NCBI GenBank assembly: GCA_035510635.1
Contig: DATKGU010000003.1
Coordinates: 662 to 64,661, forward strand
Length of the DNA stretch: 64,000 nt
Source: Minisyncoccota bacterium
GTDB taxonomy: Bacteria; Patescibacteriota; Minisyncoccia; Phycocordibacterales; SBAW01
Reading direction: 5' to 3'
Positions 450 to 10,835 of this stretch are shown piece after piece. Position 1 is the stretch's first letter. Each line of letters starts with the position of its first letter. A program made the position numbers and the translations under genes. The notes under the pieces were generated by a model, which was not told the origin of the DNA, made no database searches, and worked only from the letters and a program-made list of their open reading frames with translations.

Positions 450-1394
450 TTAAAACCCTTCTGGCGGTTTAGTGTGTATAAAGCTATTCACACTAATTAC
501 CTTACCTTGCTCTTTTTCTAGAAAATACGTGAGCACTTCTTTGAGATCAGGCATCTTAGAGTGATCGATGGTTTTGATGAAGTTGGTAAACCCCGCTTTG
601 TTTTCGAAGAAGTTTCTCTGCGGTTGTACTACGTCATGGTCGATGAGTTCGCTCTTCAGAATTTCGTTATTAAAATATGAGACGACCGCCTTGTGTATTT
701 CACTCACGAAATCCCTCTCGTTTCTGGGTGCAGAATAATACTCGCCATGGGATAACTGATTACGAAGCCCTGCCGTGTTCTCAAAAATGTCACTAGCCAA
801 TTTGTCGCCGAGAATACTTTTATACAAATCTATAGCGTCGGGAAATGCCGTTTTATTCCTTTTGCGCCCAAGCGCTTCGATGGCTGCAAACATAAGGAGT
901 AATTTTGACGAATACCCAGTTGTGTTGGTAGCGTCGTTCCAGTAGAGATAAAAATCATTCGGTATCGTCGCCTCTGCATACAGCGTCCCAATGGCCTGCC
1001 CGTGCCTCTGAAGTAAAAGCAAACCCTGAGCATCTCGATCTCTGGTAAAGCGGAACAGTCCAGTGCTAGGGAATGAATCGGATCTAGTGATTAAAAAAGG
1101 CTCAAGGACGAATCGAACATAGCCTTGGCTCACCAGAGAAATTCTGGAAGTTATCTTCTCCAGTTTGTCGATGAAATGTGCGTAGGCCTTCTCCCAGTCC
1201 GCTGCGTTGATCTTCGCGCTTGCGAACCAAAAATCTCCGGTCGGGCCGGTCTGGATAGTGAAGTGCTCCTGTCGAAAAATAATTCCGTCCACGACAAAGC
1301 TCGGATCAGTTCCGTCTCCCATCGCGAGATGACTGATTGATCGGATTCGATGCTCGATGAAGTATTCGTTCATGATCCTAATACTCTGTTGCAC
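450..1394 (-). CDS. HEPN-domain (Rx4H) Abi-like protein, possibly Apea/Abi family. Likely true start MNEYF at 1373.
   Basis: C-terminal motif TAGLRNQLSHGEYY (R-x4-H followed by G) typical of HEPN RNase-like abortive-infection proteins. Paralogous motif context to ORF 4687-5799. Confidence 0.5.
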   Translation of the reverse strand: MQQSIRIMNEYFIEHRIRSISHLAMGDGTDPSFVVDGIIFRQEHFTIQTGPTGDFWFASAKINAADWEKAYAHFIDKLEKITSRISLVSQGYVRFVLEPFLITRSDSFPSTGLFRFTRDRDAQGLLLLQRHGQAIGTLYAEATIPNDFYLYWNDATNTTGYSSKLLLMFAAIEALGRKRNKTAFPDAIDLYKSILGDKLASDIFENTAGLRNQLSHGEYYSAPRNERDFVSEIHKAVVSYFNNEILKSELIDHDVVQPQRNFFENKAGFTNFIKTIDHSKMPDLKEVLTYFLEKEQGKVISVNSFIHTKPPEGF

Positions 1395-2216: not shown

Positions 2217-3917
2217 ATGAGAGTTGACAGTAAAAAAGTACAACTCGCCCAGCCGTTTATCCCGGGTCTTTCTCCGATCCAATCAGCTGTAGATGAACTA
2301 GCTGCGGCGAACATCGATGACCGCGGCGCAATTTTCACCCGTCGGGAAGTGGTCGACTTTATACTCGATCTCGTCGGCTACACACCTGATAAATCGTTGC
2401 AGGACTTTCGACTGCTAGAGCCGTCATTCGGTCATGGCGATTTTCTTATTCCTGCGATTGAGAGGCTGATGATGTCGATCAAGCGGCAGAAATTACTGCC
2501 AACTGCGGATCTTTTGAAGGAGAGTATTCGTGGGGTGGAACTGCATGTAGCTTCATTCGGAAAAACTGTAAGCGAAGTTAGAGAGATTCTCATTAAAAAC
2601 GAACTTCGGGAGCGTGACGCGGACGAGGTACTAGACGCGTGGTTTGTCCGCGGGGACTTTCTCCTCTCGTTCTTCGGTCAGTCTTTTACTCATGTCGTTG
2701 GTAATCCACCGTATATACGACAGGAAATGGTACCGAACGCACTGATGGCCGAATATCGTCGTCGCTTTGATACCATCTACGATCGTGCTGACATTTACGT
2801 GCCGTTCATCGAGTATTCTCTCAGGCTCCTCGACGAAGGCGGTGTTCTCGGATTTATTTGTGCCGATCGTTGGATGAAAAATCGTTATGGCGGTCCGCTT
2901 CGCGACCTTGTGGCGGCAGAATTTCATCTTCGTGCATATGTCGACATGATCAACACGCACGCCTTTCATTCCGAAGTGATCGCGTATCCGGCAATAACTG
3001 TGATTGCGCGCGAGCCTTCCGGCCCGACACGTATCGCCAAACAACCGGAAATAGAAGCAGGGGCGCTTGAACAACTCTCGAAAGCCCTCAGACAAGATGC
3101 GCCGCATAGCAAAATCCTTCAGACGACCGTGCGGGAGGGCGGGCCATGGACGCTCGACGAATCTGATGCTCTCACGTTCATGCGTCGCCTTGAAGTTGAA
3201 TTCCCGACACTTGAGGAAGCTGGTTGCAAGGTAGGCATTGGTGTCGCAACTGGAGCCGATAGTGTCTTCATTGCTCCTTTCGCGGAGCTCGACGTAGAAG
3301 TTGATCGCAAATTGCCGCTCGCAATGACCAAGGACATACAGAGCGGGAAGGTCGAATGGCGCGGGTTTGGCGTGATAAATCCTTTTGGCGAAGACGGTAA
3401 GCTAGTCTCGCTTTCCGAGTATCCGAAACTGCGTGATTATCTGGAACAGCACAGCGAGACGATCAAGAGCCGTCACGTCTCCAAGAAAAACCCGAATGGC
3501 TGGTACCGGACAATCGATCGCATTTATCCTGAATTGGTGGCGAAACCGAAGCTCCTAATCCCTGACATTAAAGGTGACGCGCATATTGTGTACGAAGAGG
3601 GTAAATTCTATCCGCATCACAACCTCTACTACATAACTTCGGACAGCTGGGATCTGCAGGCACTCAGGTCCGTACTATCTTCCGGCATCGCACGTCTTTT
3701 CATCGAGGCATATTCAACGCGGATGCATGGGAACTGCCTTCGTTTCCAAGCTCAGTACTTGCGGCGCATACGCCTTCCGCAATGGTCTGATGTACCGAAA
3801 GACCTCCGTCGTCAGCTGCGTATTGCCGCTGAAAAGGACGATGTTGCTGCACGCGAAGATGCCGTCTCTCGTCTCTACTCCCTATCACCGTCTGAACGTG
3901 CTACGATTTATAGGTAA
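2217..3917 (+). CDS. Type II N6-adenine DNA methyltransferase (gamma-class, Eco57I/PaeR7I-like).
   Basis: Motif [11 protein letters not shown] (xPxxGxGxFL) and motif [10 protein letters not shown] (NPPY); 566 aa; stop TAA overlaps the ATG of the downstream ORF (TAATG). Confidence 0.85.
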
Positions 3918-4686: not shown

Positions 4687-5799
4687 ATGGGTGGACATCT
4701 TTCAGTTACATATTTTCCGTTCCTCAACATGGACGGCGCGAAGGAGATCGACTTCGGGTTTCTCAAAATCTGGAACTTCTCAGCGATGAAGGATACCTAC
4801 GTCCCCGACCAAGCCACGCGCGAACACCTCGAAAAGATCTTCGCCATGCACCAGTCGTACGGGAAGCCGATTGAAGGCATCGGGGTCGTCTCGATCGGGG
4901 CGACAGACTTCAGGGCTTTTACGGAGGACGAGTATCGAAAAATCCGCGCCGCGCGGCTGATCCTTTTTCTCTCTTTTATCGACAGAAACAATACGGGGCA
5001 CGACCCAAACGCCGGCCACTCGATGGTAACGTCCGATACCTTCGATCTCTACACGCAGGGCTTCATCGTCGGCGACGATCACCTCTCAGACCGAGCGGGT
5101 GAGATTATTTCTTTCTTGAGAGGCGGCTTCGAGCTCGGCCGCACCGTGTTTGAAAGACCGGGCTTCGTGCCAGCGCATTTTATGTTCGCGCTCAGCAGCG
5201 ACCTGTTCAGTAGCCTGCGGGACATGCAAGCAAAAAGGCCTCGCGTGTTCGAAAAAGTCATTACCGCGACCGAGCTTTTTTTCGAGAGCTACTACAACGG
5301 TCCGCAGCTCAGCAAGAACGCTCGCGTGCTGTTGCAAGCGAGTGCATTCGAGGTATTGCTGGACCTGCCGGAAAGGGATCAACGCAAGCACTTCAAAGAA
5401 GCAATCGGCACGCTAACGAACCTACCGGGCGAGAAGACCTATACGCACTTTTCCGAGAGAACTGGGAGACTCAAAGTCAGGGAGAAAATTACGATCAAGC
5501 AGATCTGGGCGGACTTGTTTTACACTCTCCGGAACCACATCATCCACGGCAATACTCCAAAGAGCAGCGACTTTGTATTCAAGGGTGCACGGCACACGGA
5601 CATCACCGTCCAGTTTTTCGTTCTCTGTGTCCGGAAGCTGATCGAAAAAAAACTCCCGGGGCACCCGTGCGATCACCTCATCGAGTGGGGTTCGTGGGAG
5701 GACGCCTCACAAACACCGCCGACGCGTGTGAACGGATTTGTATATCGCGTTGAAATAATGAAAAAAATTGCGCGCGCCCTAAAAAAGAAGAGCCCTTAA
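4687..5799 (+). CDS. Second HEPN-like (Rx4H) protein, divergent paralog of ORF 450-1394.
   Basis: Motif FYTLRNHIIHGNT (R-x4-H-G) about 60 aa from the C-terminus; upstream helix SAFEVLLDL parallels AAIEALG in the other protein; SD GGGAGG upstream. Confidence 0.5.
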   Translation: MGGHLSVTYFPFLNMDGAKEIDFGFLKIWNFSAMKDTYVPDQATREHLEKIFAMHQSYGKPIEGIGVVSIGATDFRAFTEDEYRKIRAARLILFLSFIDRNNTGHDPNAGHSMVTSDTFDLYTQGFIVGDDHLSDRAGEIISFLRGGFELGRTVFERPGFVPAHFMFALSSDLFSSLRDMQAKRPRVFEKVITATELFFESYYNGPQLSKNARVLLQASAFEVLLDLPERDQRKHFKEAIGTLTNLPGEKTYTHFSERTGRLKVREKITIKQIWADLFYTLRNHIIHGNTPKSSDFVFKGARHTDITVQFFVLCVRKLIEKKLPGHPCDHLIEWGSWEDASQTPPTRVNGFVYRVEIMKKIARALKKKSP

Positions 5800-7009: not shown

Positions 7010-7296
7010 GATTTTCCGCGCTTAGTTGATAAGCAACTGGCAGCGGCGATTTTCTAGACACAGAAAACCCGCCACGGGTTCCGGCTTGCGCCGGACGTAC
7101 AGGTTTCCCCATACGGCGGATCACGCAACCCCATGACGGGTTTTCTATGCGTGATCCGACCAGAGGCCATGCCACCGTTGCCGATGGTTTAGGCCCTGCC
7201 CTCTCGGGCTATTCAGTTGTAAGCAAATGTTAGCATCGGCGGCGGCTCCTGACCACCCGCTTTGCTAGCGGCGGCGGTAGAGCCTAGAATGAAGGA

Positions 7297-8685: not shown

Positions 8686-10437
8686 ATGAAAACAACAGGA
8701 AAATTGAATTACGGAGGATACTCGCGCAAGTCGAGCGAGGCGGAAGATAAGCAAGCGCTCTCGATCGACTCGCAGATTGATGAACTCAAGAAGCTCGCCG
8801 CAAGCAAGAAAATCGTACTACGAGATGAAGACATAATGCAGGAAGCGCATTCAGCAAAAAGTGCCTTCGCCCGCCCCGTATTCGAATTGCTTATCAAGCA
8901 CATCGAGCAACGCAAGGTGCAAGGCTTACTTGTGTGGCATCCAAACCGGCTCTCACGCAACGCCGTCGACGCGGCGCGCCTTATCCAACTGATGGACGAA
9001 GGGAAACTCGTCGAGATAGTTACGCCGAGCCAGACGTTCCATGACACGCCGCAAGACAAGTTCTTCTTCACGCTCATGACCAGCCAAGCAAAAATGGAGA
9101 ACGATGCGAAAGGCATCGATGTAAAGCGCGGACTCCGAAAAAAGAACGAGATGGGGTACCCAGCCGGCGTCGCCAAACTGGGGTACGTCAATGACTACGG
9201 CGAAAAGGGATATCGGAAGCTCGAGGCGGACCCTGAGCGCTTCGAACTCGTAAAACAGCTGCTACTCATGTTTCTTTCGGGAAAGCACTCTGCACGAGCA
9301 CTCCTGAAGCACTCAACCAATGTCATGCGACTGCATACGATCCAGCGCAAAAAAGAAGGCGGCCGACCTATCCAACTCTCTCGTATTTATACGATGCTGC
9401 AAGACCCATTCTATGCAGGCTTCTTCTGGGCCAAAGACGAAAACAGAGAAACCAAGCGATATGAGGTCAACGAGGCTGTGCCGCGAATGATTACGGAAGC
9501 CCAGTACTGGGAGATACAGACCATGCTCGGCCGGAACGGTATCCCGCGCCCGACCCTTAACAAGGATTCGTTTCCGTACGCTGGTAGGACGCGATGCGGA
9601 AACTGTAACGGTACGGTGATTGCGGAACACAAGCACCAATTGATCTGCCCAAACTGCCGGAATAAATTCGCATACAAAAACAAAGAGGTGTGTCCGCGTT
9701 GCGACACCCGAATAGATCGCATGGAAAACGCGACATACCTCCACTACATCTACTACCACTGCAATAAAGGCAAAAACCCGACCTGCGAGGAGCCGAGCAT
9801 CCAGCAGTCGGGTATAGACGAATCCATGGCGAAGCGCATCGAACAGGAGCTCGAAACGTCGAGGGCCCTTAGTGAATGGTGCATCCAGCACCTTGAGATT
9901 ATCGCGGGCGAAGAGCGCAAAAATGAGTACGAGCGCAAAGAAGGCCTAAAGCGCGAGCTGGCGCAAAAAGAAAAAGAGAGCGAAGAACTCATTCGCATGC
10001 GCATGAAAGGCCTTATCGAGGACGATGACGAGTTCCTGCGATACAAGGAAGGGCTGGAGAGCGACAAGCGCCGAATAAAGCAAGTTCTAGACGACATGGG
10101 CGGAACGGACACCGCGAGTCTCGAGGAGGCAAAGAAAGCCTTCGCCGTGATCGTCGGATTGAGCGCAGTGTTCAAAAGCGGCACATTCGAGGAAAAACAG
10201 GAGGCTTTATCGGTGCTCGGTTCGAACCTAACTTTAAAGGAGAAAAACCTCAACGTTATCAACAAGAAAGTGTTCTTATTGATTTCAAAAGGCCTACTTG
10301 AGGCGAGAGCCAAAAACCCTACGTTCGAACCTAGAAATTATGAGGCAGATAAAGACGAAACGGAGGCATTCGCCTCCGTTCGTCCAACCTTGCTCCGCGA
10401 CCAGGACTCGAACCTGGAACCAACTCCTTACACGTAA
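8686..10437 (+). CDS. Large serine recombinase/integrase (resolvase-type catalytic domain, recombinase domain and zinc-ribbon). The annotated 3' end reads through into the tRNA-Asn 3' exon.
   Basis: N-terminus GYSRKSSEAEDKQALSID...VWHPNRLSRN (catalytic Ser, resolvase fold); Cys clusters CGNCNG...CPNC and CPRC...C (zinc ribbon); coiled-coil C-terminus; 583 aa. Confidence 0.85.
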   Translation: MKTTGKLNYGGYSRKSSEAEDKQALSIDSQIDELKKLAASKKIVLRDEDIMQEAHSAKSAFARPVFELLIKHIEQRKVQGLLVWHPNRLSRNAVDAARLIQLMDEGKLVEIVTPSQTFHDTPQDKFFFTLMTSQAKMENDAKGIDVKRGLRKKNEMGYPAGVAKLGYVNDYGEKGYRKLEADPERFELVKQLLLMFLSGKHSARALLKHSTNVMRLHTIQRKKEGGRPIQLSRIYTMLQDPFYAGFFWAKDENRETKRYEVNEAVPRMITEAQYWEIQTMLGRNGIPRPTLNKDSFPYAGRTRCGNCNGTVIAEHKHQLICPNCRNKFAYKNKEVCPRCDTRIDRMENATYLHYIYYHCNKGKNPTCEEPSIQQSGIDESMAKRIEQELETSRALSEWCIQHLEIIAGEERKNEYERKEGLKRELAQKEKESEELIRMRMKGLIEDDDEFLRYKEGLESDKRRIKQVLDDMGGTDTASLEEAKKAFAVIVGLSAVFKSGTFEEKQEALSVLGSNLTLKEKNLNVINKKVFLLISKGLLEARAKNPTFEPRNYEADKDETEAFASVRPTLLRDQDSNLEPTPYT

Positions 10438-10699
10438 TCCCACATTGCTGGGGGCGTGGACTATATCATCATCCCAGTTACTAAACTGTCGGATGCGAGG
10501 CGCTTCGTGCCGCAAAACAACTTTGCGGAACTACTCCCTTGCGGGATAGTCTCTACACCTTTTCCAAAACTTTTGGAACTTGGCTCGGGATTGCCCTTAT
10601 TGCTAAGGGTTTCCCCGAATTCACCTCGTTTTGCAATCCAGATTACGCTGGAAAGCTGCCTTTTGACAGGGAGCTGCTCTACCATTGAGCTATCGCGGA
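10393..10699 (-). tRNA. tRNA-Asn(GUU) interrupted by a group I intron in the anticodon loop (exons 10666-10699 and 10393-10430; mature length 72 nt, CCA not encoded).
   Basis: 5' exon UCCGCGA-UA-GCUC-AAUGGUA-GAGC-A-GCUCC-CUGU. 3' exon UAA-GGAGU-UGGUU-CCAGG-UUCGAGU-CCUGG-UCGCGGA-G. Acceptor stems complementary, U1-A72, G73, loop CUGUUAA identical to E. coli tRNA-Asn. An alternative splice reading would give Thr(UGU). Confidence 0.65.
10431..10665 (-). ncRNA. Group I self-splicing intron, IC3-like (Azoarcus/tRNA-type), 235 nt, no ORF.
   Basis: P1: exon CUGU^C pairs with IGS GGCAG (U.G at the splice site). R-like GGUGUAGAGACUA and S-like GAUAUAGUCC elements form P7 (GACUA/UAGUC). Strong similarity to the Azoarcus intron core (AAUUCGGGGAAACC...CCGAGCCAAGUUCC...AAGGUGUAGAGACUA). 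Terminal G before the 3' exon. Confidence 0.7.
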
Positions 10700-10835
10700 A
10701 TGTCTATCCCCAGTGCGGGAATACTCATGGATAATAGCTCAAAAGGAATCGTTTGGAAAGTTCACCTTATCTTTATAGGGTATACTTACTATTGATTTAA
10801 GAGATGAGTTTTTATCAACTAAAACGGATATTTTT

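Follow-up and report, generated by a model that had tools for sequence, protein, structure and literature searches.

A tRNA-Asn(GUU) gene of an uncultured Patescibacterium split between U35 and U36 by a group I intron

A 64,000-nt stretch of a Minisyncoccota bacterium assembly (GCA_035510635.1, contig DATKGU010000003.1, positions 662–64,661 of the forward strand; 52% G+C), referred to here as the window, contains on its minus strand, between positions 10393 and 10699, a tRNA gene that is complete only when an internal segment is removed. The locus raises the question of which tRNA is encoded, exactly where its sequence is interrupted, to which class the intervening sequence belongs, and whether a gene of this kind is new. 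We conclude, with a probability of roughly 0.93, that an uncultured Patescibacterium here has its tRNA-Asn(GUU) gene split at U35/U36 by a self-splicing group I intron, 235 nt long, of a lineage already described in these bacteria.

Architecture, fold and splice junction of the split gene

As judged from the sequence and from ARAGORN, the 5′ exon (10666–10699, minus strand; 34 nt) covers tRNA positions 1–35 and ends in ...CUGU, and the 3′ exon (10393–10430, minus strand; 38 nt) runs from U36 to G73 with no encoded CCA. The intron occupies 10431–10665 (minus strand). An earlier interpretation of the window, made without database searches (the sequence-only reading), had given these exon and intron coordinates and quoted the corresponding sequences; both are exact to the base. 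Spliced in silico, the exons yield a 72-nt molecule that ARAGORN calls tRNA-Asn(gtt), with the perfectly complementary acceptor stem (7 bp) that had been claimed for it. In default mode the program misses the split gene and finds only tRNA-Glu and tRNA-Pro in the window. The gene is flanked by a promoter-like site (TTTCCA-17-TATTAT; 10731–10759, minus strand) some 32 nt ahead of the tRNA, identified by consensus scan only and conserved as a region in the nearest relative of the locus, and by an intrinsic-terminator-like hairpin with a T-run (10358–10381, minus strand), found by sequence scan 12 nt after G73. The intron holds no homing endonuclease gene and is too short for one; a survey of tRNA group I introns found endonuclease genes only where the intron exceeds 500 bp (Nakagawa et al., PMC13011429).

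The intervening sequence is a group I intron, as the sequence-only reading had proposed: Rfam RF00028 matches the window at 10679–10438 on the minus strand with 71.7 bits (gathering score 50; E=3.3e-16), end to end over model positions 1–253. The minimum free energy (MFE) of the intron is −84.3 kcal/mol, with a z-score of −4.9 against 200 dinucleotide shuffles, and the MFE fold gives P2, P3, P5, P6a, P7.1, P7.2, P8 and P9 on its own, so that most of the helices drawn by hand are recovered. Homologues were sought in species-representative genomes with the core pattern GTAGAGACTA, 60–90 nt, GATATAGTCCAC, and at least 119 loci were obtained, mostly from Patescibacteria. Among the matches listed, 66 loci are callable by ARAGORN, and 50 of these encode tRNA-Asn and show the boundaries ...CUGU / ...G / UAA...; an intron-terminal G followed by UAA is found in all 50 of these Asn loci. 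We aligned 38 of the 50 with the window (39 sequences) and projected onto the alignment a model comprising the four tRNA stems, P1–P9, P9.0, P7.1 and P7.2 (86 pairs). Standard pairs fill 93.9% of the alignment cells, compared with 37–45% when the 3′ partners are slid by 1–3 columns; double-sided changes are present in 51 of the 86 modelled pairs, and none of 500 shuffles attains any of the observed measures. The four tRNA stems, including the acceptor, D and anticodon stems to which the 5′ exon contributes, are 98–100% paired, and U1–A72 and G73 are invariant in all 39 sequences. The discriminator base G73 is an Asn identity element, as established in E. coli. All family-invariant positions of the intron core are intact in the window copy.

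The helices, all on the minus strand, follow one another from the 5′ splice site. P1 (10656–10669) pairs exon C32–U35 and intron C1 with the intron guide GGCAG; the helix is 100% paired, and the U35·G wobble at the 5′ splice site is invariant (39/39 sequences). P2 (10636–10653) is a hairpin with a GUAA (GNRA) loop in which all 7 pairs have changed on both sides among homologues. P3 joins 10622–10628 to 10496–10502 (98.5% paired, compensatory changes in 3 pairs) as an alignment helix shared by the two strands, and the P4–P5–P6/P6a domain, an Azoarcus-like stretch (10558–10618), is seen both in the alignment helices and in the MFE fold. The guanosine-binding helix P7 is formed by GACUA (10547–10551), located by the Rfam alignment, and UAGUC (10459–10463), preceded by J8/7 GAUAUA and placed by the Rfam and homologue alignments. 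Downstream of the first P7 strand come the P7.1 hairpin UCCC-GCAA-GGGA (10535–10546; 98% paired, compensatory changes in 2 pairs) and the P7.2 hairpin (10508–10530; 85% paired, all 6 pairs changed on both sides). P8 (10470–10495) is 95% paired with compensatory changes in 4 pairs, and P9.0 and P9, the latter with a GCAA loop, are alignment helices that lead to the terminal guanosine, ωG, at 10431 (10431–10457). Of the conserved core helices P3–P8, among which P3 and P7 make up the pseudoknot, P3, P4, P5, P6a and P8 are backed by compensatory changes across the 39 sequences. The elements listed in the sequence-only reading, namely P1 CUGU^C/GGCAG, P7 GACUA/UAGUC, the terminal G and the motifs AAUUCGGGGAAACC, CCGAGCCAAG and AAGGUGUAGAGACUA, are all present, and the formation of P3–P9 is borne out by covariation, with P7 present and invariant.

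The position of the junction follows from P1 and from uninterrupted copies of the gene. Exon CUGU lies opposite intron GCAG in all 51 homologous loci, so that U35 faces G, and the first intron base forms a standard pair with the base 5′ of GCAG in 51 of 51 loci: C–G in 19, G–C in 18, A–U in 9 and G·U in 5. Because this covarying pair beside the splice site fits that register only, we place the insertion at 35/36. A metagenome scan with the 3′-exon sequence retrieved 49 uninterrupted alleles reading ...CUGU|UAAGG...; compared with the predicted ligated exons, 26 of them are identical at 72/72 positions and 22 more agree at 97%. Agreement with uninterrupted tRNA genes is the published validation criterion for a spliced product (Nakagawa et al., PMC13011429). 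The host proposed by the sequence-only reading is thus upheld by the ARAGORN call on the spliced sequence, by the 72/72 intron-less genes and by G73, and its splice point between 35 and 36, with a U·G pair in P1, by the P1 register of the 51 loci together with the intron-less alleles.

Splicing would follow the standard two-step group I pathway. The precursor would be its own transcription unit, running from the promoter-like site, about 32 nt before the tRNA, to the terminator 12 nt after it, and the intron would fold as P1–P9 with the extra hairpins P7.1 and P7.2. With exon CUGU paired to the intron guide GCAG and U35 set in the U·G wobble, a free guanosine held in P7 would attack after U35; the terminal G (10431) would next occupy the same P7 site, and attack of U35 on the 3′ splice site would join U35 to U36 and release the intron. 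CCA would be added last, after splicing, because the gene does not encode it. We infer catalysis by the window intron from a homologous tRNA-Asn intron at the same 35/36 site, which self-splices in vitro precisely and in a GTP-dependent manner and is inactivated by mutation of ωG (Nakagawa et al. 2026, PMC13011429).

Some observations count against a functional, self-splicing tRNA-Asn gene. The window copy has a C/U mismatch at the loop closure of P2 (L2) and another C/U mismatch in P9, and P10 amounts to one pair at most. P7 is invariant in the homologues, but the search pattern contained P7, and hence the helix offers no independent covariation test. The window intron shares only about 64% identity with the member that was spliced experimentally. 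Finally, a second tRNA-Asn is possible outside the window, in which the other tRNAs are Glu and Pro.

Relatives and alternative readings

The five nearest precursors among the matches listed are 80–86% identical over exons and intron and come from Nomurabacteria and Adlerbacteria-type metagenome-assembled genomes (MAGs). The gene order def-fmt-hpf beside the tRNA is common to the window and four of these five loci, with 44–69% amino-acid identity. Exact-protein searches located the deformylase of the window on one 2.4-kb metagenome contig only (SRR8676595) and gave no entry for the recombinase. Among metagenome loci (L146–L225), the intron is present in some copies of the gene and missing from others with identical exons: the gene is uninterrupted on 26 contigs (100% identity) and holds an intron at this site on about 27. 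The closest relative of the window, L163, is 85% identical to it over 5.3 kb of upstream flank and has an intron-less tRNA-Asn. This polymorphism suggests a recent gain, or else a precise loss, of the intron that needed no homing endonuclease.

Several side observations were made on these relatives. Directly upstream of its intact tRNA, L163 carries (~1280–1360, minus strand) a 14-nt direct repeat, ACATTCCGCGATAG, around an insert of about 50 nt with two hairpins; the final 4 nt of the leader and the initial 10 nt of the tRNA make up the repeat, and the arrangement may be the scar of an insertion or recombination at the tRNA 5′ end. The metagenome contigs L192, L204 and L215 encode another tRNA, presumably Lys(UUU) from its anticodon loop CUUUUAA, in which a 30-nt segment covering anticodon stem, variable region and T-arm is identical to tRNA-Asn and the acceptor stem is different. 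Matches to the core pattern with labels from outside the Patescibacteria (L060, L038, L074, L095, L019, L048, L053, L071, L084, L104 and L114) are assigned to Burkholderiales, Gammaproteobacteria, Clostridiales, Anoxybacillus, Ectobacillus and Bhargavaea. One of these, the ‘Burkholderiales’ MAG locus L060, has a layout of tRNA-Asn, intron and recombinase that is nearly that of the Patescibacteria loci, and may be a mis-binned contig.

Could the gene instead encode another tRNA, or no functional tRNA at all? Run in intron mode (-i), a check suggested in the sequence-only reading, ARAGORN does find the 235-nt intron but labels the gene Thr(tgt) with the register 2 nt off. An intron of the same length moved by 2 nt would indeed make the gene a tRNA-Thr(UGU) interrupted at 33/34, and both choices of boundary have a U ahead of the 5′ site and a G at the intron end. 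The Thr register would, however, place U33 opposite A rather than G in P1. The gene also has U1–A72 and G73, as do all the Asn homologues, whereas the genuine tRNA-Thr genes of the same loci have G1–C72 and U73; among uninterrupted genes, the sequence ...CUGUUAAGG... is found in 48 and ...CUUGUAAGG... in none; and for these very genes ARAGORN and tFind have been documented to slip by 2 nt and report Thr(UGU) (Nakagawa et al., PMC13011429). The P1 register, the tRNA identity features and the intron-less alleles rule out insertion at 33/34, and we attach a negligible probability to it. That the locus is a decaying pseudogene whose intact counterpart lies elsewhere in the genome is very unlikely. 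The window is part of the genome only, and the two helix mismatches, in P9 and where L2 closes, would be compatible with decay, but 26 intron-less genes match the exons at 100%, the invariant core positions of the family are kept in full, and both promoter-like and terminator-like elements are present. A further rival reading concerns the subgroup of the intron. The sequence-only reading had described an Azoarcus-like core of type IC3. The likeness is real: P3–P6 and J6/7 resemble Azoarcus in sequence, and GNRA loops on P2 and P9 together with the lack of P5abc are as in the IC3 tRNA introns of Azoarcus and Anabaena. The type assignment does not stand.

Relative to the RF00028 consensus, 42 nt are inserted in the window intron between P7 and the P3 3′ strand; they form P7.1 and P7.2, both covarying. 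In the Azoarcus sequence used for comparison, P7 leads directly to P3′. Michel and Westhof, in 1990, are said to have taken P7.1 and P7.2 as marks of subgroup IA. The Nostoc tRNA-Leu intron, as printed in Nakagawa et al. (PMC13011429), likewise passes from P7 directly to P3′ with no P7.1 or P7.2. Peripheral helices of this kind serve as criteria for group I classes (Hausner 2014), and the IA-type nrdF intron is drawn with P7.1/P7.2 (PMC2248736). Subgroup covariance models assign 25 of 28 introns at 35/36 to IA and none of the Patescibacteria tRNA introns to IC, and the tRNA-Asn 35/36 introns are labelled IA1 or IA2 in the table of that study (Nakagawa et al., PMC13011429). Because P7.1/P7.2 are present and the tRNA-Asn 35/36 introns have a published IA1/IA2 assignment, the IC3 label is unsupported; we dropped it and regard an IC3-type intron as unlikely, although the sequence likeness in P3–P6 and J6/7 stands despite the difference in subgroup. 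The core pattern GTAGAGACTA...GATATAGTCCAC is also present on 25 IMG/VR viral contigs (L121–L145), in most cases apparently inside protein-coding genes and in a few inside other tRNAs, given as Gln(ctg) and Tyr(gta) by ARAGORN. This viral occurrence fits an IA-type, phage-like affinity of the window intron core.

A serine recombinase and a LOOT RNA beside the tRNA gene

A large serine recombinase gene (8686–10437, plus strand), with Pfam domains Resolvase PF00239, Recombinase PF07508 and zinc ribbon PF18912 and a phrog_95 integrase match (E=2e-58), converges on the tRNA gene. The last 45 nt of its open reading frame (ORF) are antisense to the whole 3′ exon and beyond, with the TAA stop falling within the final 7 nt of the intron. 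The arrangement recurs: recombinase ORFs of 500–600 amino acids, homologous or analogous, terminate within the tRNA at 12 of the 101 genome loci among the matches listed, about 6 further genome loci carry recombinase remnants, and at least two recombinase subfamilies are represented. Among metagenome loci the overlap is found in 12 of 54 that could be evaluated, 6 of 21 with the intron and 6 of 33 without it. The further loci with a convergent recombinase are L001, L005, L020, L021, L034, L041, L046, L060, L068, L093 and L102, and L154, L161–L163, L165, L166, L187, L195, L212 and L219; one locus with the overlap has tRNA-Asp instead. A link between recombinase and intron was considered and ruled out, as the recombinase adjoins intron-less and intron-bearing alleles alike. 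Since it is found at both kinds of locus, the association is with tRNA-Asn and not with the intron.

Sequence comparison makes an integrated serine-recombinase element next to tRNA-Asn the likeliest reading of this neighbourhood. More specifically, and compatibly with a split tRNA-Asn gene, the tRNA 3′ end would be the attachment site of such an element, lying below 10393, in which case part of the tRNA 3′ end and the terminator may be supplied by the element; we give this about an even chance. The gene next to the tRNA encodes a large serine integrase of phage type, with an ORF that ends inside the tRNA, and the recurrence of the overlap across loci and subfamilies suggests that the tRNA-Asn 3′ end may be an integration hotspot. 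Similarity to recombinase-free relatives ends at the tRNA 3′ end, the downstream DNA of the window has no synteny with any relative, and L163 bears a different recombinase at the same place. The putative cargo is mobile- or defence-like in character, as described below. Against this, no displaced tRNA fragment or att repeat at a far end rose above the shuffled background in the window and 11 other loci, no synteny with relatives beyond the putative island was found that would give its far boundary, and the window has no break in GC content or skew. There are also no relatives of the recombinase on viral contigs, where the matches to the intron core are likewise without a recombinase.

Between the window start and the recombinase lie an Eco57I/N6-type DNA methyltransferase gene (2217–3917, plus strand) and an ORF (4687–5799, plus strand) whose Apea-like HEPN match is weak; both are consistent with mobile or defence-island cargo. 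Directly downstream of its tRNA, the locus L016 carries a homologue of the N-terminal domain of the methyltransferase. The same interval of the window holds a LOOT RNA (7080–7195, minus strand; Rfam RF03000, 84.5 bits), about 1.5 kb from the recombinase start. When the window and 144 loci were searched with a purpose-built model, made from three copies, LOOT was found only in the window, in L041 (1723–1854, minus strand) and in L046 (4256–4373, plus strand). All three loci bear a recombinase, and the orientation of LOOT relative to the tRNA is alike in all three. No conserved gene that would indicate a leader role was found downstream of LOOT in these three loci, and because the downstream genes are unrelated, LOOT looks like a stand-alone cargo of the recombinase element.

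A wider generalization is tentative, and we hold it to be slightly less probable than its contrary: the tRNA-Asn 3′ half in Patescibacteria would be an attachment site for diverse large-serine-recombinase elements, with integrase ORFs that end inside the tRNA and LOOT as an occasional cargo. To our knowledge, serine integrases are not classically tied to tRNA targets, and we know of no context or function for LOOT. If true, attachment at tRNA-Asn would give both the tRNA targeting by serine integrases and LOOT a concrete setting. The overlap of the recombinase with tRNA-Asn and the LOOT cargo are thus a modest possible new lead, separate from the intron.

Comparison with known introns

The intron itself is ordinary. 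The sequence-only reading had considered its host and insertion site unusual and the ribozyme new and compact, and on these points it is superseded by the literature. The number of bacterial tRNA types known to be split by introns rose from 4 to 21 with Williams (2020, bioRxiv 10.1101/2020.01.27.920355), and ‘Asn.4Ug’, an Asn type split at 35/36, is credited to Williams 2020 by Nakagawa et al. (PMC13011429). A set of 95 complete Patescibacteria genomes was reported to hold 15 tRNA-Asn(GUU) genes with an intron at 35/36, and such introns were also seen in Cyanobacteriota, Nitrospirota and Bipolaricaulota (Nakagawa et al., bioRxiv 2025; mSystems 2026, PMC13011429). A length of 235 nt is unremarkable against the published mean of 257 nt for tRNA group I introns (Nakagawa et al., PMC13011429). 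The exact sequence of the window intron was not found in the part of the supplementary tables of that study that was covered. Because gene order and nearest homologues place the window in Patescibacteria, its intron is one further member of a known lineage, for which host, site and self-splicing were previously described.

The practical consequence concerns annotation. Default tRNA finders skip the gene and the intron-aware mode says tRNA-Thr, so a genome with such a gene would seem to lack tRNA-Asn and its completeness would be underscored, a point already published. What the present analysis adds is the polymorphic intron with identical exons, and a fold for the lineage, including P7.1/P7.2, that is strongly backed by covariation.

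The closest known counterparts are the Patescibacteria tRNA-Asn 35/36 introns (PMC13011429), which have the same host tRNA, site and phylum as the window. They share with it P1 CUGU/GCAG, a GNRA-capped P2 and P9, the R/S core, a similar length, the lack of an endonuclease gene and the same ARAGORN miscall as Thr(UGU). The published members GCA_025999335.1 and GCA_026016225.1 have the same two-hairpin P7.1/P7.2 layout, whereas the experimentally spliced member has one longer hairpin after P7 in place of the two in the window. Unlike the published tRNA-Asn 35/36 members, the window has a serine recombinase ORF that covers the 3′ exon as well as the final 7 nt of the intron.

The IC3 introns of Azoarcus tRNA-Ile(CAU) and Nostoc/Anabaena tRNA-Leu(UAA) are likewise compact and located in the tRNA anticodon loop, and they resemble the window in the P3–P6 core, J6/7 and the GNRA loops on P2 and P9. 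The insertion sites are different: the Nostoc tRNA-Leu intron lies at 34/35 and that of Azoarcus tRNA-Ile at 36/37, compared with 35/36 in the window. They also belong to subgroup IC3 and lack P7.1/P7.2, in contrast to the IA lineage of the window. A 2017 paper on a ‘cyanobacterial tRNA group I intron’ (PMC5733544) was set aside as not relevant, its ‘introns’ being 22–49 nt long. The phage and bacterial IA introns of T4 td and Bacillus nrdF (PMC2248736) carry P7.1 and P7.2 between P7 and P3′, as does the window, and its classical R/S core, GUAGAGACUA...GAUAUAGUCC, is also found in phage protein-coding genes on viral contigs. These IA introns reside in protein-coding hosts and often contain homing endonuclease genes, whereas the intron in the window resides in a tRNA gene and contains none.

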